A stretch of 64,000 nucleotides of DNA from assembly GCA_016188605.1 (NCBI GenBank), contig JACPHP010000009.1:24786-88785 (forward strand), given 5' to 3'. The stretch comes from Candidatus Spechtbacteria bacterium (GTDB lineage: Bacteria; Patescibacteriota; Minisyncoccia; Spechtbacterales; JACPHP01). The position numbers and the translations under genes were made by a program. Under the pieces are notes generated by a model. That model was not told the DNA's origin and ran no database searches. It saw only the letters and a program-made list of their open reading frames with translations. Shown here in pieces: positions 5,170 to 53,785 of this stretch (position 1 is its first letter; every line of letters starts with the position of its first letter).

Positions 5170-5186
5170 CTTGCGCCCTCCTTTCT

Positions 5187-20656: not shown

Positions 20657-20660
20657 TTGC

Positions 20661-35123: not shown

Positions 35124-35258
35124 ATGTCGGTTACATACCAAAAAAAGACCAAAAAAAGAAATCGCAAGCATGGTTTTATGGAAAGGAGTTCAACTCCCAG
35201 TGGAAGAAGGGTTTTAGCTAGGAGAAGGACTAAGCAAAGAAAGAATTTATCAGTATAA
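35124..35258 (+). CDS. rpmH: 50S ribosomal protein L34
   Basis: [44 protein letters not shown] (44 aa) is L34-like. The ORF track extended it to an upstream ATG at 35070. Confidence 0.85.
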
Positions 35259-35259
35259 T

Positions 35260-39936: not shown

Positions 39937-40689
39937 CTACGGAACTTGAATTTGATTAATATCAAGTATGGGCATGCGAATATCAAGCGTGGCAGGGTCA
40001 AATCCCTTTGAGCGAATCCAATCAAGCGCAAGACCTTCTTGCCCCTGCAGCTCGTCAAAAATCTCTTGGCGAGTTTTTAGTCGGTCTGCCGAATCAGAAG
40101 GAATATTTACTGATATAAGATAATGCGCTTTTAAGTTTGCTTCATCTGACACCCCATAATCAACATGGAATCCGTCTGATTCATGTGGTAGTAATCGTAG
40201 TAACGGATTAGCCTCCTCAAGGCGTTTTTGAAAATCTATTAATTGCGAATAACCAAGTTTATTGTACTCATAGGACTGCTTGGTATTAGAGAATCCTCTA
40301 ACTACGATTGGCGTTTGGTCTGAGGTTCTGAATTGTAGATTTCCTCGCACAGCACGGTTTAAAGGATTAAATCCTCGAGTATTTAACGAAATAGAGAAAT
40401 CTGTATTTAGTGAAAGATTTGGAACTGGAGTTATGGTAATATTGGGTCCACTTGTAGATATTCTTGCAAACTTAAGCATGTCTGGGTAATTACTTTGTAT
40501 TTGCCCGATAATATTATTCGGCAAAGAGCTACTAAATGTCATAATGATTTCAATATCGGGTGAGGTGGATACGTTTTTTGTCTCTGGAAAAGAAGAAACA
40601 AGCGTGATTGGCCACAGCAACTGTGTCAGTACGAGAGAGAGAACATATAAGAGTATCAATACCGGTAGTACTAATAAAAATCTTTTCAT
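39937..40689 (-). CDS. Hypothetical N-terminally anchored extracytoplasmic protein; last gene of the T4SS-like cluster (VirB8-like topology?)
   Basis: The ORF-track start at 40752 overlaps the upstream gene; the ATG at 40689 (MKRFLLVLPVLILLYVL...) gives a single N-terminal TM segment plus a domain of about 230 aa. No motif recognised. Confidence 0.35.
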   Translation of the reverse strand: MKRFLLVLPVLILLYVLSLVLTQLLWPITLVSSFPETKNVSTSPDIEIIMTFSSSLPNNIIGQIQSNYPDMLKFARISTSGPNITITPVPNLSLNTDFSISLNTRGFNPLNRAVRGNLQFRTSDQTPIVVRGFSNTKQSYEYNKLGYSQLIDFQKRLEEANPLLRLLPHESDGFHVDYGVSDEANLKAHYLISVNIPSDSADRLKTRQEIFDELQGQEGLALDWIRSKGFDPATLDIRMPILDINQIQVP

Positions 40690-40700
40690 AAGCGCACTAT

Positions 40701-42212
40701 TTAATTGCCAAACCCTATATAGCGATATGCATGCGTCATTCTTGATTGCCAACGATCAGGTCCGGTAGGAAGATAATTCTCTAAAGAAGCTTGCCATTCC
40801 CTTCTAACAACGCCATCAGCCCCCACTGGGTCGTCGAGCCAAATTGCAACATGTCCATCTGGCCCCCAACCATTGTTTGTAGGAAATAAAATATCACCCG
40901 GCCTTAATTGGCTAGAATCAGTTATGTTAACAAATTGAAAGTTCGGATTATTCTTAAGATAATCCTCTTGTGTTGGCGTGCCAATATCGGGAAAACTAGG
41001 ATCAATTGTTGCCTTTACAACGCTAGCTACGTAAATACCACAATCAGCACCATAGAAATTTGTTGCAGTCTTAAGGTAGAGTGGTTCTGCGTGAATATAA
41101 AGCTGGTGTTCGGGAGCGCTGGGATTAAGTGTTTGTTGGAAGGGTTTTATGGCAAATCCACGAGCAACGCGCGCGAAGTCGGTATACGTGGTTCCTCCAA
41201 CCACTCCCCCGCCAATTCCAGCACTTCCTCCAACCCCACCATAATACTGAAGCTTTATACTTGATACATCATTATCCCAATGATCAATAATACAACCATC
41301 CGTAAGGCAAATTAGATTGAAGTTAATAAATAATATTCCTGCCTTGTTTCTACTATCTCCGGTTACTTTAGATAAACAGTCCTGCGTTACGTTGCTGTCT
41401 AGAAACTTTTGTTTGCACGTATAAGTTGTGCCATGAACTGTTACTTCTATCCATCCTTTGGCCGGCTGGCCAGTATTGTTATTTGGATACTGGAAAAAAG
41501 TTGCCTTAGTATTTCCGGTAACAACTGCCATCTGAACCTTGCCATCATAATTACCCACAATGTTTCCAGCAGAATCAATAATTGGTAGGTTGTATAAATT
41601 TTCATTTCCCGGGATACTAATTGCAGTTGGGCAATTTTTTGTTATGTCAAAGGGTGGCGTGCCGTCTAATCTAGACAGGTCGTGTAATGCGTAAATGCAT
41701 ACGCCGTTTTGTAATCCTTGCGTCCCGCCTCCTACCGCGCCGGAAAGGGTTGGGAAGTCGGGATTGCTGCAAGCCGGCATGCCCGGAGCGCCGCATATTT
41801 TAAACGAACTTTCGCTCGGTGTAAGCAACTGCGGATTGATATTGGCAAGTAAAATATATGATCCGAGCAAGATTACCATGCCAACAAGAACATCGCGAAT
41901 GCGCTGCTGTGCTTTAAGCCGTTTCCACGGCGAGCCGGTTGAGGTGGCGAGCGTAAACATGGCGACCAGCAGCGCGCCCAACGCCATAAGCCCAGCAAGC
42001 CATAGCGCGCCGGCAAAAGCAAACTGCAAAATCTGCGGAATAGTTATACCGCCGGCGATTTGGTCTAGCGTGTTAAGTGTTTGGGGCAGATCTCCAAATC
42101 CGGGAATATGTGGGTATTGTAGTTCAAGAGCATTCGCCGAAGGCGAATACAAGAATCCCACAACCAAAAAAAGAGCGAAGAAAAATAGTTTTTGTAAAAT
42201 TTTTTTAATCAT
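40701..42212 (-). CDS. Secreted pilin-like (TrbC/VirB2-like two-helix) module fused to a C-terminal CHAP-type peptidoglycan peptidase domain
   Basis: Signal peptide ...SPSANA|LELQYPHIPGFGDL. Two hydrophobic helices (ILQFAFAGALWLAGLMALGALLVAMFTLA / VLVGMVILLGSYILLANINPQL). C-terminal YGADCGIYVA ... PDGHVAIWLDD, a Cys...His pair as in CHAP/NlpC-P60. Paralogous to the next two genes. Confidence 0.5.
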   Translation of the reverse strand: MIKKILQKLFFFALFLVVGFLYSPSANALELQYPHIPGFGDLPQTLNTLDQIAGGITIPQILQFAFAGALWLAGLMALGALLVAMFTLATSTGSPWKRLKAQQRIRDVLVGMVILLGSYILLANINPQLLTPSESSFKICGAPGMPACSNPDFPTLSGAVGGGTQGLQNGVCIYALHDLSRLDGTPPFDITKNCPTAISIPGNENLYNLPIIDSAGNIVGNYDGKVQMAVVTGNTKATFFQYPNNNTGQPAKGWIEVTVHGTTYTCKQKFLDSNVTQDCLSKVTGDSRNKAGILFINFNLICLTDGCIIDHWDNDVSSIKLQYYGGVGGSAGIGGGVVGGTTYTDFARVARGFAIKPFQQTLNPSAPEHQLYIHAEPLYLKTATNFYGADCGIYVASVVKATIDPSFPDIGTPTQEDYLKNNPNFQFVNITDSSQLRPGDILFPTNNGWGPDGHVAIWLDDPVGADGVVRREWQASLENYLPTGPDRWQSRMTHAYRYIGFGN

Positions 42213-43691
42213 TTATCGTGTTACCGGAGGATTCAAAGGGATTTTCGCTCCATTTGTTCCAAGAGGAACAAAACGATCATAGGTTGCTCCAAAATTTTTT
42301 ATAAAATTTGGATTATTCGCGCATATAAAATTTTGATTGGGACCGCAGAACCAACGTACCCACTCGGCAAAATCATTAGGGTGTTCGTTGTGAGTAAAGT
42401 TGATAAAACAATCAAGCGATTGTTGAAAGGGTACTGTAGATAATACACCGCCCGGAAAACATCCAAACCCGCTGGCCGCATCAACTCCCGGGCTTGATGC
42501 GCCAGACTCCTCGGCCCATATAGAAAAAGCAAAAGCCGGATTTATGGAATTAGCTATAGCGGCATCAATAACCCTTTGTCCTAGCTCTTCAACGCGATTG
42601 TCAGTGAATCCCATTGTGTCTAAAATATTTTTAGCCCTAGCAAGGTCTACTGCAACAGAAGAGTCTGTATGCGATATAGTATACGTGAGGGGCTGTGGAG
42701 GATTGATAACCGCTCCTCCTCCCAATAAACTTACCTTTATACTAGATATATCATCTTCCCAGCGGTCGCCAAAGGAACCACAGCTTGATTCTATACATAT
42801 ATTTTTAAAATTCACGTAAAGCAAACCGCCCTTATTCCTGGGGTCAGAGCCAAGATCGTTTTTACAATCATGTATATCTTGACCTGTATTAGGTTTGCGT
42901 CGGCAAGAGTAGTTGGCGCCATCTTTGATGATTTCTATCCATCCTTTGTCGTCTTGTCCTGCATTGTAGTCTCTGTATTGGTAAAAGGTGGCTTTTGTAG
43001 TAGTGCCTGTAATGATAGCGAAGTATACTTTACCATCCCAATTTAATGGTCCGCTCGATCCTGGTACAATGCGGGGATTATTAGTTAAATCTGCATCACC
43101 GGGCGGGATAATTTGAGCTGGGCAATCTTTTGTGATGTCAAAAGGTGTCCCTAGGTTTATAGGCGTTGTATCTAGCATACACACGCCTGACGTTAGGGAT
43201 AAAGTTGGGTCTATTTCGCTTCCTCCGCCCAATATGTCTGGGAAATCAGGATTCTTGCATTGAATTGTTCCTCCTCTGCCATCGGGCGCGCCACAAATAC
43301 GGAAATACTGGCCACCCAAGGTTAATAATTGGGGGTTAAGAAGGCCAAGGACGATGTATACGCCAAGCAGAATTACCACACCAATCATCACATCCCATAT
43401 TCTATTTTTTGCATTCATTTGTTTCCATGGCGCGCCTTGGGACGTGGCATACATAAATCCTGCTATAATAAGCGCCCCAAACGCCATTAGCCCCGCGATC
43501 CACAGTGAAAAAGCCAGCACGAATTGGACAAGCTGACCAATTCCAAGCGCGCCGCTATTGTAAAGCGTATTTAAATCCCCAAATCCCGGAATGGTGGGAT
43601 ATTGGAGCTCAAGAGCACGCGTGGGGGGAGCAATAACACTGAAAAGAATACTAGCTAAAAATATATATATTTTTTTATTTAGTTTAATCAT
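42213..43691 (-). CDS. Secreted pilin-like module fused to a C-terminal lysozyme-like (GH73/SLT-like) domain candidate
   Basis: Signal peptide ...PPTRA|LELQYPTIPGFGDL. Helices FVLAFSLWIAGLMAFGALIIAGFMYA / VMIGVVILLGVYIVLGLLNPQL. The central region is paralogous to 40701..42212 (TPFDITKDCPA, cysteine pattern). The C-terminal NPAFAFSIWAEESGASSPG resembles the catalytic Glu-Ser-Gly of GH73/GH23. Confidence 0.4.
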   Translation of the reverse strand: MIKLNKKIYIFLASILFSVIAPPTRALELQYPTIPGFGDLNTLYNSGALGIGQLVQFVLAFSLWIAGLMAFGALIIAGFMYATSQGAPWKQMNAKNRIWDVMIGVVILLGVYIVLGLLNPQLLTLGGQYFRICGAPDGRGGTIQCKNPDFPDILGGGSEIDPTLSLTSGVCMLDTTPINLGTPFDITKDCPAQIIPPGDADLTNNPRIVPGSSGPLNWDGKVYFAIITGTTTKATFYQYRDYNAGQDDKGWIEIIKDGANYSCRRKPNTGQDIHDCKNDLGSDPRNKGGLLYVNFKNICIESSCGSFGDRWEDDISSIKVSLLGGGAVINPPQPLTYTISHTDSSVAVDLARAKNILDTMGFTDNRVEELGQRVIDAAIANSINPAFAFSIWAEESGASSPGVDAASGFGCFPGGVLSTVPFQQSLDCFINFTHNEHPNDFAEWVRWFCGPNQNFICANNPNFIKNFGATYDRFVPLGTNGAKIPLNPPVTR

Positions 43692-43693
43692 AT

Positions 43694-46312
43694 TTAATTT
43701 ATGTTTTGTGCAAATGACTGGTAAGCTTGATATAGCGTATCCCAGTCACGATGGAATATGTGGTCCATTCCTCGGTCGCGATCACCGTCACCGTTATCAG
43801 TAGGTGTTGCCATAAATCCCCACTGACAGTAAAATCCTGTTCCTGCGGTAAAGGCTTTTTGCATGTCATCGCTGATATTTTGAGAACGGTCGTCATTTGG
43901 TCCCGCGTTAAAACCCGCCTCATCAAGTATATAGGGTTTATTTTGCTGTTGGGCAATCCATAAATCTTGATCATTAAATCCATTATAGGAGTGAGCGCCA
44001 ACGAAGTCGAAAGAATTATAAAGATCAAGCGCTTGATCTTGAGATAAGCCCGCCTGCTCTGTTTTTTCTAAACCTGTTCCTATCAAATGATATGGATCTT
44101 GTTTTCGTATTTCATCAGCCATATTTTTCATAAAGGCAACTAAATCTTCATTGTTTCCTCCCTGAAGAGTGTTGTTGCGCAACTCATTACCTACTTGCCA
44201 TGCAAATATGCCAGGATGCCTGCCGCCTCCTATTTGTTCTGTGATAAGGCGTACCCATGGCAGGTAGTTTTGTCTAAAACCTTGTTTAAACCACTGTGGA
44301 TTGAGCACCGCAGGTATGTTGGGCGAGCCATCAGATTGATAATACGCATCGTCTCCTGGTGGGGAAAAACCAGTTTGGAACCAATCGGTTAGTGCAACAA
44401 TAACTCGCATATCGTATTGATAATAGGCCTTATCGAGAAAAATTCGTACACGATCCACTGATTGTTGCGGAGTGAGAGAATTGTTCGCCCCAAACAGTCT
44501 TATGACTTTCACACCCATTGCTTTTGCAGCGGCAAGCTGGGTATCTTCTGTGCCACCCGCTTGTTGTACATATCCTACACCAGCGCCATAGTGCGCCAGT
44601 CCCCTATTGCTTATGCAGATACCTCGAAAAGGGGTTGTTCCCAGGACAAAATTTTTGCCATTACTACTAACCACTCCAGCGATAGGCGCCGACGAATTTC
44701 CTGGTGGTCTTCCATTCCCACCTCCACTCGACCCACCTCCTCCGGTGGTTCCTCCTCCCCCGGCCGCGCCTCCGCCAACTCCAAGCGCGCTTGCCCCGTC
44801 GCAAAAATAGAAATCTTCATTGCGGCAGGTTTGGGTATCTGTGCGCGTAGCTGTGTCGGGGCAGCAAAAGTCGCTGCTGCTACAGTAAACATTTTCGTGT
44901 ATCGCTGATTTTTTCTTTGTTTCGTTACAAGTGGTAAGCCAAAGGTTGTGAGGAGTAGCGGGGTCATAGTTTGCAATTGCAAGCACTCCCAGAGGATCAA
45001 TTTGTTCGGCAAGATACGCCAAGCTTGCTGTGGAGTTTGCGTCTGTGCCAAGCGCCTGAAGCCGGGCGCGAAAGGCGTTAAGCTGGGCAAGCTTCGCCCA
45101 TGTATCTGGTGAGCAGGATTTGTCGTAATTATTGTACGCGCCACCCTGCCTATTTTCGCAATTTCCAGCCGCCGTGCCAATACCCGCAGAACAGGTTGTG
45201 GACGAGGGGCATACAAACTGGGTGTTTGAACACGAGCACGCGTTGATGGCATTAGATATGGAATTGATATTATCAATAAGCGCCTGTTCTTTTTGTAATA
45301 ATTCCGGAATTTTTAGTGTCAGTCTTCTAAAAGTCGTATGGTCTGTGTTGCCGCAAAAATAATCAGTACTCTCAGCGCAGTCAGTGCAGTTTTTTGCCAA
45401 ATCAGAGAAAGGTACTGCCAGCGAATAATTTAATAGCTCGCCCGAAATAGTCACGCACGATTGAATTTGCGCACGTATTGGTTTAATCTCGTTATTCCAA
45501 AAAGTGCGAAGGTCGTTAAGAATATTAATTGTTTCTCCAAGCAATGTATTGGCTGTACCGCGAGCTGCGCATGGCTCCGGGCTTCCTCCAGATGACTGTG
45601 TGCAGGGATCTGCGACGCATGTAGACGGCGGCTGGCACTCCCAACCGCAAGAAGTGCAATCTTTCCCGCAAGACCTGCATATGTAAGCGCCCGGAGTATA
45701 GGGGGTGGGTGTTATCCCTTGGCACGCGCTTGCGGAACAGCCCGCGAGTCCATCTTTTACTTTGGTTACCAGACCGTTGTAGATTAGCCCATCCGGCAGA
45801 GAATTATACATATCTTGTATTAACACATCCGTGTTATCAAGCGCTTTCCCCAACGCGTATTTTGAAAATTGGCTGCCGGGAGCAATGGTATTGGGAATAT
45901 TAGGCGAAATTGTTGATACGGAAATATCAGGGAACGCCGGTGCTTCGCGAAAACCCAGGGTGGTCAGCTGAGGATTTATGAAATTTAAAAAAATTACCGC
46001 GCCAAGCAGCATCAGTATGCCTACGATAATGCTAATGATATGGTTACGAGCCGCAAGGCGTTTCAAGGGCGTTTGTCCGCTTGTGGCAAGCTGGAAACCG
46101 ATCATAATTATTCCCGCAACAGCCACTAAACTGCCTACGCCAAGCGATGCGTTAAAAATAATTTTAGTAATTTCGCCGATTGTAAGAGTATCTTTAATTG
46201 GTAAAAAGGAAGGATATGAAAGCTCCAGCGCTTGAGCTGGATGAACGACAAAAAGGCCGAAGATGAGCGCTGTGGCCAGGTAAGGCAATGCATCTATAAT
46301 TTTTTTAAGCAT
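43694..46312 (-). CDS. Large secreted pilin-like module / Cys-rich region / Gly-rich linker / C-terminal GH5-like (clan GH-A) glycoside hydrolase domain
   Basis: Signal ...HPAQA|LELSYPSF. Helices SLVAVAGIIMIGFQLATSG / IISIIVGILMLLGAVIFLNFINPQL. Many Cys residues; GGGAAGGGGTTGGGGSSGGGNG linker. C-terminal motifs FAWQVGNELRN (NE acid/base), VGAHSY (His-x-Tyr), ILDEAGF (nucleophile Glu) and QWGF (Trp) follow the GH5 order of conserved residues. Confidence 0.5.
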   Translation of the reverse strand: MLKKIIDALPYLATALIFGLFVVHPAQALELSYPSFLPIKDTLTIGEITKIIFNASLGVGSLVAVAGIIMIGFQLATSGQTPLKRLAARNHIISIIVGILMLLGAVIFLNFINPQLTTLGFREAPAFPDISVSTISPNIPNTIAPGSQFSKYALGKALDNTDVLIQDMYNSLPDGLIYNGLVTKVKDGLAGCSASACQGITPTPYTPGAYICRSCGKDCTSCGWECQPPSTCVADPCTQSSGGSPEPCAARGTANTLLGETINILNDLRTFWNNEIKPIRAQIQSCVTISGELLNYSLAVPFSDLAKNCTDCAESTDYFCGNTDHTTFRRLTLKIPELLQKEQALIDNINSISNAINACSCSNTQFVCPSSTTCSAGIGTAAGNCENRQGGAYNNYDKSCSPDTWAKLAQLNAFRARLQALGTDANSTASLAYLAEQIDPLGVLAIANYDPATPHNLWLTTCNETKKKSAIHENVYCSSSDFCCPDTATRTDTQTCRNEDFYFCDGASALGVGGGAAGGGGTTGGGGSSGGGNGRPPGNSSAPIAGVVSSNGKNFVLGTTPFRGICISNRGLAHYGAGVGYVQQAGGTEDTQLAAAKAMGVKVIRLFGANNSLTPQQSVDRVRIFLDKAYYQYDMRVIVALTDWFQTGFSPPGDDAYYQSDGSPNIPAVLNPQWFKQGFRQNYLPWVRLITEQIGGGRHPGIFAWQVGNELRNNTLQGGNNEDLVAFMKNMADEIRKQDPYHLIGTGLEKTEQAGLSQDQALDLYNSFDFVGAHSYNGFNDQDLWIAQQQNKPYILDEAGFNAGPNDDRSQNISDDMQKAFTAGTGFYCQWGFMATPTDNGDGDRDRGMDHIFHRDWDTLYQAYQSFAQNIN

Positions 46313-46667
46313 CGGCAGATTGCATTAAAAACATAATTACGTTTATTGTCCACAAAGGCAGCGTTGTTCCTACTAGTGGAACATATTCCGCTAGCATCAA
46401 TGGCGCGCGGCGTTTGAGAAACTTACTTAATCTTCCAGTTGTGTTTACTCCTCCCCCGCCTCGCGTGTACATCCACCCTCCTAAGACTATTGTAAATAAA
46501 ATATCTGGTATCCACGCGATGATTTCACCTATTCCAAAGAATATATTTAACGCGAGCAAAATAAATCCAATAAAATCAGCAAACATCGCGGTGGTCAACA
46601 TTAAAATTCCCTCGGGATTGAAGGGCGTTGGCCTGGAATGGCTGGATTGTTGGACTTCTTCGGGCAT
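46305..46667 (-). CDS. Small integral membrane protein (3 TM) downstream of the VirB4-like ATPase
   Basis: 120 aa with three hydrophobic helices. No motif. Overlaps the next gene by 8 bp. Confidence 0.4.
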   Translation of the reverse strand: MPEEVQQSSHSRPTPFNPEGILMLTTAMFADFIGFILLALNIFFGIGEIIAWIPDILFTIVLGGWMYTRGGGGVNTTGRLSKFLKRRAPLMLAEYVPLVGTTLPLWTINVIMFLMQSADA

Positions 46668-46821
46668 AGGACGGTACTTATCTCAAATCTCAAAACTCAA
46701 ATCGCAAAACTGAATCTCAAATCGTAAAACTACCGACCGAGTAAGATTTTAGTTTTGCGATGTAGTTTTGAGATTTACCATTTGAGATTTGAGATAATAT
46801 ATACTATTATCTCTGCACTTG
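46668..46821. repeat. Palindromic intergenic element, 'tctcaaa' heptamer family, inside the T4SS-like cluster
   Basis: Left arm tctcaaa tctcaaa actcaaa tcgcaaa actgaat ctcaaat cgtaaaa. The right arm is inverted (ttttgcgatgtagttttgagatttaccatttgagatttgaga). No GC hairpin at the centre. Confidence 0.6.
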
Positions 46822-48639
46822 CTATTGTGCAACTTCTTCTGCGGGTTCATTTTCCAACTCCTCCCTCGCTTTTTCTATCTGCAATAATTGCACCGGGTCA
46901 GATGTAATTATTTGGTCTTCAGTGTAAGAGGCAATAACCTTAATTGCCACATGTTTTGTGCCTGCAAAGAAGAGTCCCTCCCCCACCGCGCCCTCAAGCA
47001 GTAAGTATTTTTCTTCATCCGTGAGGTGAAAGGTATTTTGCACAACATCGATAGAGGCGGGCGACTGCTTTAGCAAAAGCTGTAGTGATGAGTTAGTCAC
47101 AATGGGTTTACCGTAATTAGACACCATAAAATCGCTAACATCTTGGCTGATAGTAGTAAGCCCCATGTAGTATTTGCGGCAGCGCTTGGCGATGGCATAA
47201 AGAAACGCCGCGCTATTTTCGTGTTGCATCATCCACCACGCCTCGTCAATAATTAACACGCGTTTTTTGAGAGTTCGGCGAATTGTGTCCCAAATGTAGT
47301 GCAGAATGAGAAACATGGCGACGGGGCGAAGTTCGTCTTCCATGTCGCGGATATTAAATACCACAAGCTGGCTATCAAGATTTATATTCGTCGGCTGGTT
47401 CAAGAATCCAGCGTAAATTCCTTCCACATACGGTTGTAGGCGCAGAGCAAGCGATTCCGCTCCCTCAATATTTTGTAACACCGTATAAAGATCACCCATG
47501 CGCGGCGGTACTATTCCTTCAAAATTTTCTCTTTCTGGAGTTATGTCACGCGAGGCGTATGTTTGGGTTATTGCTTGATCGAGCAAGGATTCTTCTTCTG
47601 GTGTCATGGTTCCTAGCATAACTTTCACCAGGCCCATTAGGGTTACGACGGTACTGCGCAGCACATCAGACGCATTTTCATCGGTACCAACCGGTGGCAG
47701 GTCAAAAGGATTAATATGATGTTCGGACGTTAGCGAGAGTTTGAAAAACGACCCGCCGACAGTTTCTGCAAGATATTGGTATTCGTTTTCAGGGTCAATT
47801 ACCAGTACGTCGTCGCCAAACATTAAGGAGCGCAATATTTCTAGCTTAATAGCATAGCTTTTTCCAGCACCAGATTTTCCAAAAACTACAGCGTTGGCGT
47901 TCTCCAAAGAGAATCTATCAAAAAGAATTAAACTGGAGTTGTGGCGATTAATGCCATACAATATACCCTTGTCTGCCGTTAAATCAAAAGAAACAAAGGG
48001 AAATATTGATGAAAGCGGGCTGGTATTTAAGCTGCTATATATAAGAAGCTCATCAAACAGAACCGGCAGAGAGGAATTGAATCCAGCTGTTTGCTGATAA
48101 AGAGCGGGTTTCATGTACACCATGCGGCTTTCAAGCACCGCGCGAACCTCAGACTCTATCTGCTCAAGTCCTTTTTCTGAAGTGGCATAAATAGTAATGT
48201 ATAAGCCAAACTTAAACATTTTTTCTTCCGCTTGTTGAAGCTTATCGCGCAGTTCTTCAATATTTTGGTAGGCGGCATCAAGGATAGGGTCGCGTATCAG
48301 GCCTTTTTCCGAACGCTCCATCAGGTCTGCTTCAACCGAAGTAATCTGCCGCTCAAGGGTTTTTAATATCTGTTCTGTGGACAATGGGTGGATAAACATT
48401 GAAACATCCACTGCATTACCCATGTTTATTATCGGCGAGAACCAGTTAGTGGTTAAAAAACGAGGATAGCTGAATACAAAAAGCGTTCTCGCGTAGCTGT
48501 CGCCGAGTTTTATGAAAGAGGCGTTAATTTCAAGCGCGGCAGGCGCTATAATATCGCGCAGAGTTTGCAGTTGCTGTTTGTTAGCCTCTGGGCTCTGCGC
48601 AAGCGCGTTTTCAAATTGTTGATTGGTATCTTTTGGCAT
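46822..48639 (-). CDS. VirB4/TraC/CagE-family ATPase, C-terminal (P-loop) portion; it appears to be the second half of a split VirB4
   Basis: Walker A VVFGKSGAGKSYA and the VirB4-typical Walker B LIIDEAWWMM (DEAW). Central VirB4-like region ...FVFSYPRFLTTNWFSPIINMGNAVDVSMFIHP... At 605 aa it is about 200 aa short of a typical VirB4. Confidence 0.7.
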   Translation of the reverse strand: MPKDTNQQFENALAQSPEANKQQLQTLRDIIAPAALEINASFIKLGDSYARTLFVFSYPRFLTTNWFSPIINMGNAVDVSMFIHPLSTEQILKTLERQITSVEADLMERSEKGLIRDPILDAAYQNIEELRDKLQQAEEKMFKFGLYITIYATSEKGLEQIESEVRAVLESRMVYMKPALYQQTAGFNSSLPVLFDELLIYSSLNTSPLSSIFPFVSFDLTADKGILYGINRHNSSLILFDRFSLENANAVVFGKSGAGKSYAIKLEILRSLMFGDDVLVIDPENEYQYLAETVGGSFFKLSLTSEHHINPFDLPPVGTDENASDVLRSTVVTLMGLVKVMLGTMTPEEESLLDQAITQTYASRDITPERENFEGIVPPRMGDLYTVLQNIEGAESLALRLQPYVEGIYAGFLNQPTNINLDSQLVVFNIRDMEDELRPVAMFLILHYIWDTIRRTLKKRVLIIDEAWWMMQHENSAAFLYAIAKRCRKYYMGLTTISQDVSDFMVSNYGKPIVTNSSLQLLLKQSPASIDVVQNTFHLTDEEKYLLLEGAVGEGLFFAGTKHVAIKVIASYTEDQIITSDPVQLLQIEKAREELENEPAEEVAQ

Positions 48640-48815
48640 GAGTTATATTCAAATTAACCTCATCTAACAGTTTAGGTGTTTTTTGGTTAGTAAAATAGTA
48701 TCTCAGATCTCAAATCGTAAATCTCAAAACTGAAATTTAAATCTCAAAACTACACGTGAAGATTTTAGATTTGAGTTGTAGATTTGAGATTTAAGATTTG
48801 AGTTTTGAGATAACT
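48640..48815. repeat. Palindromic intergenic element, 'tctcaaa' heptamer family, separating the two VirB4 halves
   Basis: Left arm tctcagatctcaaatcgtaaatctcaaaactgaaatttaaatctcaaaactac. Centre cacgtg. The right arm is inverted (agattttagatttgagttgtagatttgagatttaagatttgagttttgaga). Confidence 0.6.
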
Positions 48816-49481
48816 TTATTCTGGTGCGGTATAACTTTCTTCAAGAGGTTTCATCATAGCGCGTTTTTTAAGGCCTTGTGGGTTATATAGATTCCAGAAA
48901 AGGACAATCAGCTCTTCTGTTTCAAGTTGTTTGGTAAGTAAGCCCATGCGATGAAGACCAGCCGCGACAAAATCTAGGCGTTGTTCAAGCTGTGTGCGGT
49001 AATGAGCAAATTGTTGTTCCTTTAATTCTTCGCCCCCGCCGCCAATACCGAACATTCCCAGCAATCCCTTCCCTCCCCCGCTGGTTATAGCACCTTGCTC
49101 AAAAGGGTTTAGAGGAGCTACGACAAAAAAATCAGTGGAGACAATATTTGTGGTTTCAACAAATTCTTTTATAAACTTGCGATACTCTTGTGTCTGTATG
49201 CGTAAAAGGTCGTTATTTTGACGGGATTCAAGATCGGCAAGCGTGGCGATATATTCATCAATATTTAAGAATCGCGAATTGATGAATATCTGTATGTCAA
49301 AATCAAGTGAATTCAGAAAGCTTTGAAACGCGAAGATAATCGCGTCTTGCTCTTCCTGCGATTTTAACGCGAAGTTGATGCTGGACACGCGAAGCACGCC
49401 GCGCATTCCCCCGCCCTTGAGGATGAGGACGCCATCGCGGATTGCGTCAATACGGACAAAGTTTTGAGTGGAGAAAGCCAT
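48816..49481 (-). CDS. VirB4 N-terminal-domain-like protein (CagE_TrbE_VirB-type); candidate first half of the split VirB4
   Basis: MAFSTQNFVRIDAIRDGVLILKGGGMRGVLRVSSINFALKSQEEQDAIIFAFQSFLNSLDFDIQIFINSRFLNIDEY follows the VirB4 N-domain pattern as I recall it. 221 + 605 aa gives 826 aa, a typical Gram-positive VirB4 length. Confidence 0.5.
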   Translation of the reverse strand: MAFSTQNFVRIDAIRDGVLILKGGGMRGVLRVSSINFALKSQEEQDAIIFAFQSFLNSLDFDIQIFINSRFLNIDEYIATLADLESRQNNDLLRIQTQEYRKFIKEFVETTNIVSTDFFVVAPLNPFEQGAITSGGGKGLLGMFGIGGGGEELKEQQFAHYRTQLEQRLDFVAAGLHRMGLLTKQLETEELIVLFWNLYNPQGLKKRAMMKPLEESYTAPE

Positions 49482-49602
49482 AACAATTTAAATTACAAAG
49501 TCCAAATTACAAATGTCAAAGTAATGTCAAAGTTTAAAGTTTTGACATTTGGCATTTAGTCATTTGAAATTGATTTGTAATTTGACATTTGGATTTTGAA
49601 AT
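49482..49602. repeat. Palindromic intergenic element, 'tttgacattt' word family
   Basis: aaattacaaagtccaaattacaaatgtcaaagtaatgtcaaagtttaaag | ttttgacatttggcatttagtcatttgaaattgatttgtaatttgacatttgg. The arms are inverted repeats of each other. Confidence 0.6.
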
Positions 49603-50004
49603 TTATTTTTTGTCTATCCTCTGTGCCAACTGTTGTATCTGTTCTCGAGTAACCGAAGCACCCGGCCGAGCAAACTGACCCACCTCTTTTTTGATCTTAG
49701 TCGGTGTTTCCGCTTGTTTTTGCGGCGCTCTAGTCCATACGTATACGCGCGGCGAGACAGTAAAGGTAAGGAAATTCATGAAAAAATCAGCAAAGGGTTT
49801 CTCGTTTACGCGTACAAAAGCAAGCACAAGAGTCACGATTGAAATAATTATCGCGACAGGGAAGAAAAGAAAAGACTCTAGTATAAAATATAGGCCGACA
49901 ATAACCGCGCCCGCCCCGACAACCGTTAGTGTTTGGGGCAAGGTGAGCGATGCGAGAATTTTCTCCTCAAGATCAATGAATTTTGGGACTTGGAATTGCT
50001 GCAT
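49603..50004 (-). CDS. VirB3-like small two-TM membrane protein (PrgI/TcpE-like position upstream of VirB4)
   Basis: 133 aa with two adjacent TM helices (TLTVVGAGAVIVGLYFILESFLFFPVAIIISIVTLVLAFVRV). It directly precedes the VirB4 N-domain gene. Assignment by topology and position only. Confidence 0.4.
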   Translation of the reverse strand: MQQFQVPKFIDLEEKILASLTLPQTLTVVGAGAVIVGLYFILESFLFFPVAIIISIVTLVLAFVRVNEKPFADFFMNFLTFTVSPRVYVWTRAPQKQAETPTKIKKEVGQFARPGASVTREQIQQLAQRIDKK

Positions 50005-50006
50005 AC

Positions 50007-50366
50007 TTAAGATTGAGTACCCACGTCTTCTTCGGCGGCGCGGGGTATGTTATGAGTCTTCCTAAGATAGTCGCCAATTTTTACAAAAAGTTTATCGCGA
50101 ACCTCGTATGCTAATTGTCTAGCAGTAGTTTCAGGAAGTCCAAGCTCTACCTGAAGAGTTTCGCGATATTTCTGGACAGGAATTAAACCCATAATTACAT
50201 AATCGGTTATTTGCGAGAAGGTATAAACTTTATCTGGTATGTTGTATTCTCGCACTAGATAAAAAAATAGATCTGTTAGATTCTCATCCCAAAGTAAATC
50301 CTTAACTTCATCTGGAAGGTCTCTATATTGCAGCCAAAATTGTTCTTGAGAATAATTGGTAAGCAT
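50007..50366 (-). CDS. Hypothetical soluble protein in the T4SS-like cluster
   Basis: 119 aa with no TM segment and no recognisable motif. 3 bp from the downstream gene. Confidence 0.4.
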   Translation of the reverse strand: MLTNYSQEQFWLQYRDLPDEVKDLLWDENLTDLFFYLVREYNIPDKVYTFSQITDYVIMGLIPVQKYRETLQVELGLPETTARQLAYEVRDKLFVKIGDYLRKTHNIPRAAEEDVGTQS

Positions 50367-50378
50367 CGCATTATGGCA

Positions 50379-52862
50379 TTACGTTCCTCTCTTATTGTAT
50401 ATTTGTTGAAGTATCTTAATATAAGCCGCTCGTCGTGCTGGCGAAGGTTCATCTTGTATAGCATCGTTTACAGCCTTTCGATATCGTTCAAGATTTTCCG
50501 GCGTTTCGTTAAGATTGTACGTGGCTTCAGTCTGTTCTACTTGCGCGCGTAAACGATTTTGTTGTTCTTCTAACTCGGCCTTGTACTGTTCTTTTTGTGC
50601 TTGCTCCGCTTCTTTTTTAGCCGCTTCTGCTTTGGTGACAAAATTAGCGTTTTTACCACTCTCTGATGTAGGCGGAGTTGGCGCAGGCGTTGGCTTAGAA
50701 ACAAAATCTCCCTCTGGTGTTCTTGTAATATTATGTTGCTCCATTATTCTATCAAGGTCTTCCTGGCTCATAGATTCACCAGTAGTAGCCGTTGGTAGTG
50801 GAGGAGGTGTTTGTACTGAAGGGGGAGTTTGAACTGGAGTAGCGGCCGTAGGTTTTGGAGAGCTTGGTGGTGTAGGCGGCGGAGTTGGCGCGGGTGTTGG
50901 ACCAGATGGTGGTTGTTGCCATGGAGGAACAATAGTTCCAGGTTGGCTTGCGCCTCCTGCTCCAGGAGTTGCGCCGGGCGTTCCTTCACCCGCAGTCGTG
51001 CCACCACTCCCCGGAGTTGGTATATACATATTAGGTATTCTCGGGTCGATTTGTTGCGCCTGGAAAGTTGCTGTAAATTGAGCAAACTTTTTATTTTCAT
51101 TATTAAACTTCAGAAGCGCCGCAGGGTCGTTATATATTTTAATAAGCTGATCAACCACCGCATCCATAACATCCGGGTTATAGTTATCATGAATGTTTCT
51201 TAAATGCGTTGCTTGAATACCCCATACCCAATCTGCCACATTATTCTTTATTTCATCAGGAGAGATTTTATCTGGATCAAACCTGCCAGGAGTAGGGATT
51301 TTGTTTACTTTTTTCGGCGCCATTCCTCTAGCAAGACCAGCACCCATAGCCGCGCCAGCTGGACCTAGGCCAGCTAATTGTTTTTGTGCAAATGGCACAG
51401 ATCCCTTAACCGCTTCCCCTGCTTTTTTCTTGCCAGCCGTGTATCCCGCCTTGGCTTGAGATTTAACATATTTGCCAGCCGTCGTAGCGCCAGGAACTTG
51501 ACCTAATACACTACCAACTTTTCCTGCTACCGTGCTAGCCTTTGTTTTAGCGCCAGCATAAGCCCCCCCAATTTTTTGACCTACAGGAGTGCCGGCAATT
51601 CTGGTTTTTGCCGCGCGATAGCCCGTGCGGCCAACACCAACAGTAGCTCGGCCAGTTTTCTTTCCCATCCAAGTACCTGCCGCAGTTCCCCATTTTGTGC
51701 CATTGCTGACGATAAGCTTTGATCCTACCGCGCTAAATGAGAAGCTGATCATGAACCCGACGAACAGTGTGCCGATTGCAAACAGTAGCATGATGGCATT
51801 GCACATATTGGCATTCTGCAAAATGGTGAGGCCAGTTCCAGTCGTCGCATCATACGCTGTAATTGTATTGTATGATCCAGTAATGCCAGAGGGATTAGTA
51901 AAGGAAAAGTTAGTACACAGCGCGTTTCCTGATGCAATGAATCTCGCCGCCAGCCAGTAGAATAGTCCCAGTGGAATGGGTAATATTGCCCACTGGAAAA
52001 AATTACCCCACCATTGGCTAAAGTATTTTCTTGTTTCAGGAAGAATATATGCTACAAACGCAAGCGGTGAGATGATAACCAGAATCCACACAGCAAGAAT
52101 TCGTATGAGTATGAGCAGAGACATTGCTACAAACGCGGCTATTGAAAGAATATGGAAAATCACATCAACCAAAGCTTGGGCGAATACTCCAAACGCGACG
52201 CCGACGTCACCGGTAAATATTGTTTTAAGAGCCGTTAGCCATATTGAGCCAAGTGTGCTGAACGCGGGCAAGAAAAGCTTCCATCCCCCGCCAGCTCCAC
52301 CAGCATCAAAAAATATTTTTGTAAGAATGTTTGTGACATCTATAATAAAGCCAGTTATTACGGGTGTGAAGTTAATGAGTAGCGCAATTCCAATAAAGGG
52401 TATTAAAAGTTTTCGCCATCGTTCCGTTCCCAATTCCAGTATTGTGCTAACCGCAATTGCAATTAGCACAAACACAAGTCCTATATTTGCCAGATCGCGC
52501 ATCACGCCCCACGCGATTGTAATAACAGTGTTCGCAGCCGCCGGGTTTGCGGGGGTGTAGGGGACGGCAAGAGAAAAATTAATTATTGCGTCCATCACAG
52601 CGCCCATAATAATTGCAAAAACGGTAAGTATCGTACTGATGATGACAAGAATGGTTGTTACGATTGCAACAAGTAACGCAGTGAGGCGAGATGCAAAGAA
52701 CCCAACTATAGCATCGTAGAATGCATCTCCAATAACATTGGCAGAAGCTATGTGGGTTGGCATCAACAGACCAATAGAAACTAAACAAAACAAGGATAAC
52801 AAAATTACCGCAGTGCTTTGTGTGGAATGCTTGGTGAAAAATTTCACTATAGATTTCATCAC
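50379..52862 (-). CDS. VirB6/TrbL-like polytopic membrane protein with a long Pro/Thr-rich and coiled-coil C-terminal extension
   Basis: Signal/TM N-terminus and about 8 TM helices. Segment VIISPLAFVAYILPETRKYFSQWWGNFFQWAILPI resembles the TrbL/VirB6 core (PF04610-like). C-terminus PTPAPTPPPTPPSSPKP... then a charged helical region. First gene of the cluster. Confidence 0.45.
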   Translation of the reverse strand: MMKSIVKFFTKHSTQSTAVILLSLFCLVSIGLLMPTHIASANVIGDAFYDAIVGFFASRLTALLVAIVTTILVIISTILTVFAIIMGAVMDAIINFSLAVPYTPANPAAANTVITIAWGVMRDLANIGLVFVLIAIAVSTILELGTERWRKLLIPFIGIALLINFTPVITGFIIDVTNILTKIFFDAGGAGGGWKLFLPAFSTLGSIWLTALKTIFTGDVGVAFGVFAQALVDVIFHILSIAAFVAMSLLILIRILAVWILVIISPLAFVAYILPETRKYFSQWWGNFFQWAILPIPLGLFYWLAARFIASGNALCTNFSFTNPSGITGSYNTITAYDATTGTGLTILQNANMCNAIMLLFAIGTLFVGFMISFSFSAVGSKLIVSNGTKWGTAAGTWMGKKTGRATVGVGRTGYRAAKTRIAGTPVGQKIGGAYAGAKTKASTVAGKVGSVLGQVPGATTAGKYVKSQAKAGYTAGKKKAGEAVKGSVPFAQKQLAGLGPAGAAMGAGLARGMAPKKVNKIPTPGRFDPDKISPDEIKNNVADWVWGIQATHLRNIHDNYNPDVMDAVVDQLIKIYNDPAALLKFNNENKKFAQFTATFQAQQIDPRIPNMYIPTPGSGGTTAGEGTPGATPGAGGASQPGTIVPPWQQPPSGPTPAPTPPPTPPSSPKPTAATPVQTPPSVQTPPPLPTATTGESMSQEDLDRIMEQHNITRTPEGDFVSKPTPAPTPPTSESGKNANFVTKAEAAKKEAEQAQKEQYKAELEEQQNRLRAQVEQTEATYNLNETPENLERYRKAVNDAIQDEPSPARRAAYIKILQQIYNKRGT

Positions 52863-52894: not shown

Positions 52895-53785
52895 TTACAG
52901 TGGATATCTATTGACGAGAGTTTTCCACTCGTTAAGCGATAATGTTTCGGGACGGCGAGTTTGTTCAATATCGTTTTGAGCAAGCCATATCGTTATTTTT
53001 TCTTTTGGCAGGCCGAGCCCTTGCGATAAGGTTTTTTGTAGCTGTTGGCGCGGGTGTGCAAACCCAGCTTTGGCGATTTTGAAGAACAACGGAATATCTT
53101 TTTCTGCTATGACTGGGCTAGGATAGACATCCACAACTAATAATGCGGAATCAACTGTAGGTTGCGGCCAAAAAGCGCCCTTGGAAACTATGCGTACAAT
53201 AGTAGGGTTGCCATATAATTGCACGGAAAGAGCCAAAAGATTCATCCCGTTAGAGGTAGAGCGGCGCTGTGAGCCCTCGCGACCTCTAACGGGATTCATG
53301 TCTGGGGTCTTTGCGCAAATCTTCTGCGCTACTTCTTTTTGGATAATAACAGCGATTCGACTTGGGCGAATCGGCTCTTCATCAAGGAATTTACGGAATA
53401 GACGGGCTGTTAAATAATAAGGAGGCGTTCCGACGAGTTTGTAGTCCTGTATTCTGTATTCCGTATTCTGTATTCTCAGTGCGTCGCCCTCGATAATTTC
53501 TATATTCTTATAGTTTGCCGTTTGCTCGCGCAGAATAGGAATTAATGCGCGATCTTTTTCAATTGTCACGACGCGGCCAACGTATTTTGCTATTTCTGTC
53601 GTAACCGTGCCTAGTCCGCCGCCTATCTCAAGCACTGTATCGTTTTTATCTAGCTGTGCCGCGGCGATTAGAGCGTTAAGAATATCTTGATTAACCAAAA
53701 AATTCTGCCCAAGCCGCTTGTTTGGCATTAAAATATCATGTTGCAGGTAGATTTCTTTGATTTCAGAGGGCGTTAGCATAAGCAA
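52895..53785 (-). CDS. rsmA: 16S rRNA (adenine1518/1519-N6)-dimethyltransferase KsgA/RsmA
   Basis: GQNFLVNQDILNALIAAA, SAM motif VLEIGGGLGTVT. Contains an in-frame heptamer array (53446-53479) encoding RIQNTEYRIQDYK. Confidence 0.85.
   Translation of the reverse strand: MLMLTPSEIKEIYLQHDILMPNKRLGQNFLVNQDILNALIAAAQLDKNDTVLEIGGGLGTVTTEIAKYVGRVVTIEKDRALIPILREQTANYKNIEIIEGDALRIQNTEYRIQDYKLVGTPPYYLTARLFRKFLDEEPIRPSRIAVIIQKEVAQKICAKTPDMNPVRGREGSQRRSTSNGMNLLALSVQLYGNPTIVRIVSKGAFWPQPTVDSALLVVDVYPSPVIAEKDIPLFFKIAKAGFAHPRQQLQKTLSQGLGLPKEKITIWLAQNDIEQTRRPETLSLNEWKTLVNRYPL

Follow-up and report, generated by a model that had tools for sequence, protein, structure and literature searches.

What does a type IV secretion system (T4SS) build or carry when its locus encodes neither a relaxase nor a coupling protein? 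The question is raised by a cluster of genes at positions 39937-52862 of a 64-kb stretch of DNA (hereafter, the window) from contig JACPHP010000009.1, which is about 103 kb long and belongs to a metagenome-assembled genome (MAG) of Candidatus Spechtbacteria (assembly GCA_016188605.1). Spechtbacteria are a group of Patescibacteria (Parcubacteria/Paceibacteria), placed in the Parcubacteria group by the NCBI taxonomy; a considerable part of the bacteria not yet in culture are Patescibacteria, whose cells live attached to other microorganisms. A relaxase-free T4SS is essential in the sole species of Patescibacteria tested. Our statements on the absence of genes cover the window. The results presented here suggest that the cluster is very probably a vertically inherited chromosomal T4SS of the Patescibacteria type, which would have lost its DNA-processing parts and would build an envelope structure for attachment to, and exchange with, a host cell. 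As a system, the locus brings no novelty, and its value lies in pilin-enzyme fusions and in two unannotated conserved components. Judged from the translated genes, the less ordinary feature is that each pilin gene of the locus appears to be joined to the coding sequence of a large extracellular domain, and two of these domains resemble hydrolases.

The cluster comprises ten minus-strand open reading frames (ORFs), whose coordinates were re-checked in the ORF translations (Table 1). Each of the translations is identical in sequence to one of ten consecutive NCBI gene calls (MBI2462940.1-MBI2462949.1; HYV65_01745-HYV65_01790). An annotation previously made from the letters of the window (the first-pass annotation) had counted ten to eleven co-directional genes: the count of ten agrees with the NCBI calls and the eleventh gene does not. 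Neighboring genes are spaced from an 8-nt overlap to a 12-nt gap, apart from three gaps of 121-176 nt. The first gene starts at the ATG at 52859 (826 amino acids, aa) and the last one at the ATG at 40689 (250 aa) and not at the TTG at 40752, both in agreement with NCBI; the longer TTG and GTG extensions proposed by the ORF finder are probably not used. The co-directional run extends upstream of the cluster into rsmA (52895-53785) and pcrA (53883-55841). Eight of the ten products are labeled "hypothetical protein" by NCBI, one "PrgI family protein" and one "ATP-binding", which indicates that automatic pipelines still miss the T4SS of Patescibacteria. We used the Pfam gathering scores and the NCBIfam curated cut-offs as thresholds for family matches. 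Profiles and ORFs bore out the gene list of the first-pass annotation (VirB6-like, small soluble, VirB3-like, VirB4 N-domain, VirB4 P-loop, three-TM and N-anchored proteins; TM, transmembrane), and simple hydropathy agreed with the topologies that it had claimed, with a signal peptide and two TM helices in each of the three large proteins. A scan of the cluster for promoter and terminator consensus sequences revealed no useful difference from shuffled sequences.

Table 1. Genes and intergenic repeats of the T4SS cluster, listed in the direction of transcription (coordinates of the window)
Feature	Coordinates	Strand	Basis or remarks
Extended VirB6/TrbL-like polytopic membrane protein, 826 aa	50379..52859	minus	Weak Pfam TrbL match, position, topology; MBI2462949.1
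Small soluble, probably helical protein between virB6 and prgI, 119 aa	50007..50366	minus	Iterative search
PrgI family protein (VirB3 equivalent), 133 aa, two TM	49603..50004	minus	Pfam PF12666, NCBI name
AT-rich inverted repeat, prgI/trsD-like gap	49482..49602		60% identical to the 55-nt reference repeat
TrsD-like protein, 221 aa, stand-alone homolog of the VirB4 N-terminal domain	48816..49481	minus	NCBIfam
Hairpin-forming repeat, trsD-like/virB4 gap	48640..48815		RNA fold -39.7 kcal/mol, z=-4.46 vs shuffles
VirB4-family ATPase, 605 aa	46822..48639	minus	NCBIfam NF045971, PDB, Walker motifs
Hairpin-forming repeat, virB4/3-TM gene gap	46668..46821		55-nt repeat at 46743-46797
Small membrane protein immediately downstream of virB4, 120 aa, ~3 TM	46305..46667	minus	Iterative search
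Pilin-module fusion protein 1, 872 aa	43694..46312	minus	Module 1-125; C-terminal GH5-like domain ~540-872
Pilin-module fusion protein 2, 492 aa	42213..43691	minus	Module 1-125, beta-rich middle 126-325, C-terminal domain 326-492
Pilin-module fusion protein 3, 503 aa	40701..42212	minus	Module, same middle domain, C-terminal Cys/His domain 336-503
N-terminally anchored protein, 250 aa, last gene of the run	39937..40689	minus	Hydropathy

The 605-aa protein matched the NCBIfam model NF045971 (VirB4-like conjugal transfer ATPase, CD1110 family) with 373 bits for a cut-off of 325, as well as Pfam P-loop_TraG (9e-28) and the VirB4 ATPase domain of Thermoanaerobacter in the PDB (4ag5; E=4.9e-44). Its residues 107-548 aligned to residues 288-736 of TrwK of plasmid R388 (7o41; E=7.6e-10), and its Walker A (GKSGAGKS at residue 254) and Walker B (VLIIDEAW at residue 461) motifs are both intact. 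The match covers positions 179-734 of the 752 positions of NF045971, without the first ~180 residues of a full-length VirB4. The adjacent TrsD-like protein matched the Mbov_0397 VirB4 model (positions 104-216 of 894; E=4e-9), the CD1110 VirB4 model (positions 2-114 of 752; E=1.3e-5) and TrsD/TraD (NF041427; E=5.7e-4), and these three matches are mutually consistent though all are below the curated cut-offs. These results suggest that the trsD-like gene and virB4 together cover one full-length VirB4, as proposed in the first-pass annotation, which had recognized an N-domain ORF followed by a P-loop ORF with Walker A and DEAW motifs. The same protein also matched the PHROG family phrog_2666 ("terminase large subunit"; E=9e-11) over the first 88 positions of the profile.

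The first-pass annotation had further described this VirB4 as split. Two separate ORFs are indeed present, but this arrangement is not peculiar to the genome. We compared the window to 80 loci that correspond to the best VirB4 matches from species-representative (GTDB) genomes and to which the proteins of the window were mapped by BLASTP. The trsD-like gene is a separate ORF in 78 of these 80 loci, and the other two are cut by contig ends. The best 120 VirB4 homologs are 577-655 aa long, mostly ~590-615, and present 62-76% identity to the query, apart from the query's own record (100%). Among these 120, the named sources are all Patescibacteria (Spechtbacteria, Giovannonibacteria, Azambacteria and Parcubacteria), and most entries are nameless. 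Because the two-gene order is found in 78 of the 80 loci and the homologs are 577-655 aa long, we conclude that TrsD plus VirB4 is the normal and ancestral state of the clade and not a break. The same two observations led us to reject a recent frameshift as the origin of the split.

The two other membrane components of the core machine are a PrgI protein and a candidate VirB6. The 133-aa protein matched Pfam PF12666 (PrgI) above the gathering score (E=6.3e-10; 39.9 bits for a threshold of 27) and presents two TM segments, which confirms that it is the two-TM VirB3-like protein first recognized by eye; prgI is found beside trsD-virB4 in 77 of the 80 loci. The 826-aa protein presents ~7-8 TM or hydrophobic segments within residues 1-385 (hydropathy), followed by a tail of ~440 aa that is Gly/Lys-rich, then Pro/Thr-rich and finally coiled-coil-like. 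It matched Pfam TrbL (PF04610) with E=2e-4 to 5e-4 (20.4-21.4 bits), under the gathering score of 25.9. When a 55-member VirB6 family was collected from related loci, TrbL was the sole Pfam family matched (7 of the 55 members; best E=9e-8), and a profile search of the PDB with this family returned spurious TM matches only. The VirB6/TrbL-like identity is therefore supported by the orthologs, but the score of the protein itself remains below the threshold. A virB6 homolog was found by blastp in 56 of the 80 loci and it was located upstream of prgI every time.

Comparing gene order among Patescibacteria, a check proposed along with the first-pass annotation, revealed the same order across the 80 loci, all of which come from MAGs of Patescibacteria where the taxon is named. 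The recurring order is pcrA - rsmA - (2.5-4 kb) - virB6 - x - prgI - trsD - virB4 - (3-4 kb variable) - jag - yidC - (rnpA) - dnaA - dnaN. Because it recurs in 80 other species-level genomes, the clustering of these genes is far beyond chance. We detected yidC in 54, dnaA in 51 and rsmA in 45 of the 80 loci; the context on the dnaA, rsmA and yidC sides is thus found in 45-54 loci, the majority of those whose length suffices to reveal it. In the window, the cluster is followed by an O-antigen-ligase-like gene located 2 bp from the last stop codon and then by murJ-like, jag, yidC, rnpA (35260-35607), dnaA (33343-34713) and dnaN. On the other flank, rsmA/ksgA lies 35 bp from the first start codon, with pcrA, a LysM-M23 peptidase gene, comM and pnp beyond it. 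The GC content (guanine plus cytosine) of the cluster equals that of its flanks, and no att-like direct repeats were found around the cluster beyond chance. Since the order is shared by 80 species-level genomes, the GC content equals that of the flanks and att repeats are missing, we conclude that the cluster is chromosomal and vertically inherited.

The window encodes no relaxase, VirD4/TcpA-type coupling protein, VirB11 or integrase, based on the translations and on Pfam searches of the remaining unclear ORFs, and no tRNA was found in it. The sole other secretion-type ATPase in the window is of the PilB type (T2SSE + MshEN; 20661-22382). This absence had been noted in the first-pass annotation, which took it to argue against a conjugative element and for a chromosomal, non-conjugative apparatus derived from a T4SS. 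The missing relaxase, coupling ATPase, integrase, tRNA and flanking repeats, together with the conserved housekeeping flanks, the list of parts and the literature, agree with that view.

A system of this kind has been described in the saccharibacterium Southlakia epibionticum ML1, in which the T4SS genes SEML1_0006-0019 were found to be essential for epibiotic growth by transposon sequencing (Tn-seq) (Wang et al. 2023; PMC10633639). The Southlakia T4SS is nearest to Gram-positive conjugation systems and possesses pilins without recognizable coupling and relaxase proteins; according to structure-based assignments, its operon encodes, in this order, VirB6-like proteins, an NTF2-like protein, PrgI, an uncharacterized protein, VirB4, a DD-peptidase and a lysozyme/lysozyme/Cys-peptidase protein (PMC10633639). 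Six short PF18895 pilins are encoded on the other strand and are essential, as are the hydrolases downstream of virB4 (PMC10633639). A survey of Patescibacteria (Quinonero-Coronel et al. 2025; PMC12102498) reported that their VirB4 proteins form a monophyletic clade related to MPF-FATA, that TrsD is the commonest VirB4-associated component (1,664 beside virB4), that PrgI and VirB6 are present and that VirB2-like pilins form arrays of 2-11 genes. In the same survey, relaxases were found near virB4 in just 15 genomes of Patescibacteria, and the T4SS of Paceibacteria adjoined dnaA, dnaN, rnpA and ksgA. A 2025 review calls the T4SSs of Patescibacteria "most exciting newcomers" and treats the pilus as a conduit to the host as speculation (PMC12857230). 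By its gene content, the present locus appears to be this already described relaxase-free T4SS of Patescibacteria, derived from MPF-FATA. The statement of the first-pass annotation that this is not a textbook arrangement was not sustained: the system, its missing relaxase and its proximity to dnaA had already been published between 2023 and 2025.

The Southlakia T4SS resembles our locus in the order of its VirB6-like, PrgI, TrsD-like, VirB4 and hydrolase genes, in its PF18895 pilins, in its chromosomal location and in the lack of relaxase and coupling genes, and the proximity of dnaA, dnaN, rnpA and ksgA reproduces the pattern of Paceibacteria. The two loci differ in that Southlakia has short separate pilins and hydrolases without a pilin module, whereas all three modules are here fused to large domains. 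In addition, Southlakia possesses two VirB6-like genes and an NTF2-like (VirB8-like) gene, compared with one VirB6-like gene and no recognizable VirB8 at our locus, and a GH5 domain, which appears to be present here, was not reported for Southlakia. The 119-aa and 120-aa proteins of Parcubacteria loci are not discussed in either of the two studies (PMC10633639; PMC12102498).

We extended the comparison to better-known machines. The MPF-FATA systems (Prg/Pcf of pCF10, Trs of pGO1, the CD1110-type system of C. difficile CTn2 and Con of ICEBs1) share with our locus a CD1110-family VirB4, PrgI and a VirB6-type protein (a candidate one here), and a TrsD-like protein is found here as in pGO1. Neither has an outer-membrane core (VirB7, VirB9, VirB10), and both have wall hydrolases, predicted ones here, tied to the machine. 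Unlike them, our locus presents no relaxase, no coupling ATPase of the PcfC/ConQ/TcpA type, no oriT, no PrgB-type adhesin and no recognizable VirB8, and it lies outside of any mobile element; conversely, it encodes VirB2-like pilins, which are absent from Gram-positive conjugation systems (PMC12857230). The VirB1-type hydrolases of such systems (PrgK, TraG of pIP501 and CwlT) are, like the fusion proteins of our locus, membrane-tethered, extracellular and encoded beside virB4. They consist of an N-terminal membrane anchor, a muramidase/SLT domain and a CHAP or NlpC/P60 domain, and relatives of our fusions likewise carry SLT, CHAP, NLPC_P60 or M23 domains. However, the anchor of the VirB1-type proteins is a single TM helix, whereas here it is a VirB2-like pilin module, and the putative activities are spread over separate paralogs, one of them with a GH5-like domain. 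Finally, the archaeal Ced system and VirB2-like conjugative pili (PMC9905601) are similar in combining a VirB4-family ATPase with VirB2-like pilins, without relaxase and outside of a conjugative element. The Ced system differs in its ATPase (our VirB4 scored 36 bits against the CedB model, whose cut-off is 700) and in its CedA-type protein, for which no counterpart was recognized at our locus.

We further analyzed the three large proteins encoded downstream of virB4. They share an N-terminal module of ~125 residues that consists of a signal peptide and a VirB2-like two-helix part: the signal peptide ends with A-x-A and is followed by LEL(Q/S)YP, a hydrophobic helix, a basic loop (ATSxGxPWKRL) and a second helix ending with NPQL. 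The cleavage motif A-x-A|LEL is present in all three fusion proteins. We built a profile from the three modules and used it to search 1.84 billion representative proteins, which yielded 10,130 matches at E<=1e-3, of which 1,113 reached E<=1e-10. Among the 116 best module matches, 109 belong to PF18895 (best E=5e-50) and two to TrbC/VirB2. The AlphaFold2 (AF2) model of the 492-aa protein, built from 89 sequences, presents a helical hairpin at residues 40-125 with a predicted local distance difference test (pLDDT) score of 84-97, and scores <50 for the remainder. This hairpin is too small for discrimination by Foldseek; the conjugation pilin of Aeropyrum (8dfu) was matched with a TM-score of 0.51 on the target and E=3.7, which is not significant. 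Based on the profile matches and the predicted hairpin, we accept the module as a member of the PF18895 pilin family.

The domains attached to these modules are different in each of the three proteins. In the 872-aa protein, the pilin module is followed by a Cys-rich region of ~400 aa, a Gly-rich linker and a C-terminal GH5-like domain. This domain matched GH5 mannanases in the PDB (3pz9, E=4e-6; 6tn6, E=1.5e-5) and, with E=0.013, the GH158 structure 9oro. Aligned with 3pz9, it presents an acid/base NE motif (GNEL, 708) and a nucleophile motif (LDEAG, 796). The match to Pfam Cellulase (E=0.005; 16.8 bits) is under the gathering score of 23.5. The PDB matches and these motifs support the prediction of a GH5 glycoside hydrolase. 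GH5 is not a family of peptidoglycan hydrolases.

The 492-aa and 503-aa proteins are 42% identical and share a beta-rich middle domain, which is also found in the proteins P0132, P0133 and P0140. Its relatives include proteins that match Pfam beta/gamma-crystallin families, and beta/gamma-crystallins were among the non-significant Foldseek matches of the low-confidence AF2 model of the 503-aa protein. The C-terminal domain of the 503-aa protein matched two PHROG endolysin families (phrog_7887, E=4.4e-5; phrog_8781, E=4.2e-4), and no Pfam or PDB match was obtained with the single sequence or with a profile. Its motif YGADCG (C391) is kept in all three sequences that cover this position, and GH[VI].IWLDD (H454) is kept in four of four homologs. 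In the AF2 model of residues 126-503 (mean pLDDT 49.6), a helix begins at C391, the model being of low confidence. A catalytic Cys at the start of a helix is the arrangement of papain-like CHAP and NlpC/P60 enzymes. The best Foldseek match of this model is the CHAP endolysin 6ist (E=0.07, not significant). The full 503-aa protein retrieved only itself and its paralog in a word-indexed homolog search, and the profile of its C-terminal domain retrieved two proteins only, so no deep alignment could be obtained. Taken together, these results moderately support a predicted endolysin-like Cys/His peptidase.

In the C-terminal domain of the 492-aa protein, INPAFAFSIWAEESGAS / WAEESG aligns to the ESGG motif of SLT domains without significance (hhalign probability 0.4%). 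An SLT or lysozyme-like identity was considered for this domain but gained no support: the hhalign comparison with pilin-SLT proteins was not significant and the AF2 model is <50 pLDDT in this region. The three pilin-fused hydrolases of the first-pass annotation are thus reduced to two candidates, the 872-aa protein (GH5, from PDB matches) and, at moderate strength, the 503-aa protein (from PHROG matches), and the C-terminal domain of the 492-aa protein presented no match. No Foldseek match to the PDB with E<=0.001 was found for either the 492-aa or the 503-aa model. Because the models are poor and Foldseek gave no significant match, we claim no folds outside the pilin module.

Fusions of the module to other domains are not restricted to our locus. 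Among the best 150 module representatives, 127 are at least 250 aa long (median of 381 aa), and some relatives contain three to six tandem modules. The Pfam domains fused to the module among 116 representatives are SLT (5), SLT_2 (1), SLT_3 (1), Peptidase_M23 (2), CHAP (1) and beta/gamma-crystallin families. We also checked 27 pilin-module ORFs located downstream of virB4 in the fetched loci and carrying an extension of at least 140 aa: 22 of them match PF18895, and the extensions include NLPC_P60 (2), M23 (1), CHAP (1), Amidase_5 (1), SLT (1) and YkuD (1). Only a minority of the extended pilin modules carry recognizable wall-hydrolase domains. These profile matches suggest that the module is used in many architectures and that its fusion to wall-active enzymes is a recurrent theme, and therefore not a peculiarity of this genome. 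In a limited literature search, we found no mention of the pilin-enzyme fusions or of the two small conserved families, which does not prove their novelty. In some of the proteins P0128, P0129, P0131 and P0140, a clear SLT domain (ESGG...GLMQ) follows a tandem series of three or four pilin modules; in P0140, the pilin module stands between a glycosidase-like domain on its N-terminal side and an SLT-like domain on its C-terminal side.

The segment downstream of virB4 is the variable and lineage-specific part of the related loci. Most of the 80 loci present a single pilin-module gene just before jag, which is short in about half of them, and several long pilin-module genes are found in the Spechtbacterales loci L001, L003 and L004 as well as in our window. 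Between virB4 and jag, the loci L006-L080 mostly contain two extra genes (~330-350 and ~400-450 aa) around the pilin gene, without Pfam match, and most other Parcubacteria loci possess 2.5-4 kb of genes between rsmA and virB6. The window has neither this gene pair nor these rsmA-virB6 genes and contains three long pilin fusions instead. The convergent orientation of virB4 and jag is conserved in related loci.

How could such parts work together? In the T4SSs that have been studied, VirB4 hexamers docked on VirB3 and VirB6 extract VirB2 pilins from the membrane and polymerize them, and VirB2-type pilins have both termini facing outside. The mechanism that we propose is inferred from VirB4, VirB3, VirB6 and VirB2 in these systems and from the Tn-seq results in Saccharimonadia. 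The pilin modules would be inserted into the membrane by the Sec system. PrgI and the extended VirB6 would form the membrane platform, the TrsD-like protein would supply the N-domain of VirB4, and a VirB4/TrsD hexamer on this platform would extract the modules and assemble them into a short structure, similar to a pilus or a stalk, that crosses the cell's own wall. Because the termini of VirB2-type pilins face outward, the fused C-terminal enzymes would end up on the exterior of the assembled structure. There they might open peptidoglycan or polysaccharide in the cell's own wall (the VirB1 role), in the host envelope at the contact site, or in both, and the machine would thereby serve attachment to a host cell and exchange with it instead of conjugation. 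By analogy with the studied systems, its most likely product is a short pilus- or stalk-like structure that exposes the fused enzymes.

Several observations weigh against this mechanism or against the assignments on which it is built. The proposed function is deduced from the genes, and the experimental work on T4SSs concerns bacteria other than Parcubacteria. Genes for a relaxase, a coupling protein, a VirB8-like protein or a short major pilin may be present elsewhere in the genome; for instance, VirD4 homologs are distant from virB4 in many Patescibacteria (PMC12102498). No ORF matched a family of VirB8-like (NTF2-fold) bitopic proteins in Pfam or NCBIfam, and the window contains no stand-alone short pilin that would represent the filament-forming subunit. 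Taken singly, the three large proteins score 17.5-18.2 bits against PF18895 (T4SS_pilin), under the gathering score of 26.6 (18.2 bits for the 872-aa protein, which also scores 24 bits against the pilin-like family Mbov_0395 of NCBIfam, again sub-threshold), and all three are below the threshold for the pilin-like family of mycoplasma integrative conjugative elements (ICEs; NCBIfam). The C-terminal domain of the 492-aa protein (326-492) matched nothing in Pfam, in the PDB (single sequence or profile) or in PHROG. The two AF2 models are of low quality beyond the pilin module, and the fold searches returned nothing significant.

The lack of a short pilin bears on what the machine would assemble. 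The VirB2-like module could be an export handle, in which case VirB4 would release or present hydrolase effectors at the host envelope and no filament would be built. Every pilin module at the locus is fused to a large domain and there is no short pilin in the 64 kb, hydrolase-pilin fusions recur in other loci, and Wang et al. suggested that the Southlakia system "may instead export proteins" (PMC10633639). However, a short pilin is found in about half of the related loci and could lie outside the window here, and the six essential short pilins of Saccharimonadia fit a filament. We know of no precedent for effectors fused to VirB2, which also counts against protein export; overall, we consider such a device unlikely.

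A bolder version of the pilus or stalk reading takes the VirB2-like module of this lineage as an enzyme carrier, with the T4SS building or presenting an enzyme-studded pilus or stalk that digests the host envelope at the point of contact. We propose this tentatively, and think that it probably goes too far. If true, it would explain directly, in terms of mechanism, why a T4SS without a relaxase is needed by Patescibacteria, and pilin modules with long extensions would constitute an overlooked class of T4SS-delivered, pilin-tethered effectors. The fusion of predicted wall- or polysaccharide-degrading domains to a pilin module in Parcubacteria points to the envelope, own or host's, as the target.

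The cluster might also encode a machine for DNA uptake, comparable to the ComB T4SS of Helicobacter or to Ced itself, which would import DNA for nucleotides or for recombination. The missing relaxase is compatible with import, comM is located 9 kb away (57599-59128), and T4SS loci of the class ABY1 adjoin comF, recG and radA (PMC12102498). VirB4 also presents matches to CedB (E=2.8e-9) and CedD (E=3.3e-5), but these are weak and far under the NCBIfam cut-offs, whereas the match to the conjugative CD1110 family is above its cut-off. The locus contains no ComEC or DprA. Moreover, competence in Southlakia needs type IV pili and ComEC: deletion of comEC stops transformation and leaves viability unaffected, whereas the T4SS is essential (PMC12857230). 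We therefore regard DNA uptake as distinctly improbable, and rank it, like the decayed element discussed below, as less likely than a pilus or stalk or than protein export.

The three large proteins might also be ordinary membrane-anchored enzymes remodeling the cell's own wall, the hairpin being a mere anchor and the adjacency to the T4SS incidental. The sub-threshold Pfam scores of the single modules would fit this explanation, and peptidases and glycosidases of these types also serve ordinary wall turnover. Yet the module corresponds to a specific family (109 of the 116 profile matches being PF18895), most of the 80 loci have a pilin-module gene downstream of virB4, and the T4SS of Saccharimonadia is essential along with its pilins and the hydrolases encoded downstream (PMC10633639); this explanation is accordingly even less probable than DNA uptake. 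Finally, a decayed or cut-off ICE, whose relaxase, coupling protein and integrase genes would lie just beyond the edge of the window, would agree with a VirB4 of a family typical of Firmicutes ICEs (NF045971) and with our inspection of 64 kb of a ~103-kb contig, but it is very hard to reconcile with housekeeping genes that abut the cluster on both sides (the O-antigen-ligase-like gene and rsmA), with the same flanks (yidC/jag/dnaA and rsmA/pcrA) in dozens of species, with the lack of att-like repeats, tRNA or GC anomaly and with the scarcity of relaxases near virB4 in Patescibacteria (PMC12102498), and we regard it as highly improbable.

Two small proteins of the cluster are probably part of the conserved machinery. 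The 119-aa protein has no TM segment (hydropathy), and iterative searches detected homologs in 65 of the 71 informative loci; these are located directly upstream of prgI and on the same strand in 61 of 64. The gene is tandemly duplicated in two loci (L025 and L064). None of 45 members of this family matched a Pfam family, and sequence and profile searches of the PDB gave spurious matches only. Homologs of the 120-aa three-TM protein were found by iterative search in 35 of the 73 informative loci and are encoded within 700 nt downstream of virB4 in 34 of these 35. This family is characterized by a Glu followed by a Pro-x6-Pro pattern, with D31 and P104 nearly invariant and P97 invariant, and it matched no Pfam family. 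Both proteins thus appear to be conserved neighbors of prgI and virB4 outside any described family. The 250-aa protein encoded by the last gene matched Big_5 (E=0.009) and DUF2278 (E=0.0097) weakly, both under the gathering scores of Pfam. Among the 80 loci, a homolog of its C-terminal part was found in L004 (Spechtbacterales) alone, directly after a pilin-fusion gene. It is a lineage-specific protein and at most a candidate member of the apparatus.

The longer gaps of the operon contain repeats that could form hairpins (Table 1). The 55-nt copies flanking virB4 (46743-46797 and 48759-48813) are 87% identical, and the repeat between prgI and the trsD-like gene is likely a degenerate copy of the same kind. 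We counted 17 occurrences of the GTTTTGAGATTT unit in the window with no more than one mismatch, for 0.93 expected, and no Rfam match was found in the window. These hairpins may represent terminator or mRNA-stability elements, similar to repetitive extragenic palindromic (REP) sequences, that set expression within the T4SS operon. Long imperfect hairpins formed from units such as TCAAATCT/AGATTTGA are present in many intergenic regions of the window, with further hairpin regions at 19866-20040, 22726-22878, 24832-24998 and 28863-29073.

The window also includes a likely replication origin region (31981-35607), where dnaN and dnaA (minus strand) diverge from rnpA-yidC-jag (plus strand). The spacer between dnaA and rnpA (34714-35259) is 546 bp long with a GC content of 31%, and the cumulative GC skew reaches its minimum at 32-34 kb. 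With an origin at this place, transcription of the T4SS operon, rsmA and pcrA would run towards it and meet replication head-on.

Other envelope-related genes are found at a distance from the cluster. In Patescibacteria, host attachment has also been linked to a second envelope machine, the type IV pili. At 20093-22382 (plus strand), the PilB-type ATPase (573 aa) is preceded by a 187-aa ORF without family match, and no other type IV pilus genes are located near it in the window. At the left end of the window, an operon at 1692-7079 (minus strand) encodes a MoxR-type AAA ATPase, a DUF58-like protein and several vWA-domain membrane proteins (BatA/BatB-like), as identified by eye from the translations. 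Finally, the segment 25466-27531 (plus strand) encodes a 7TM_transglut membrane protein followed by an ATP-grasp protein (sugar-transfer associated, RimK-like) with a putative zinc/aspartyl protease domain at its C terminus.

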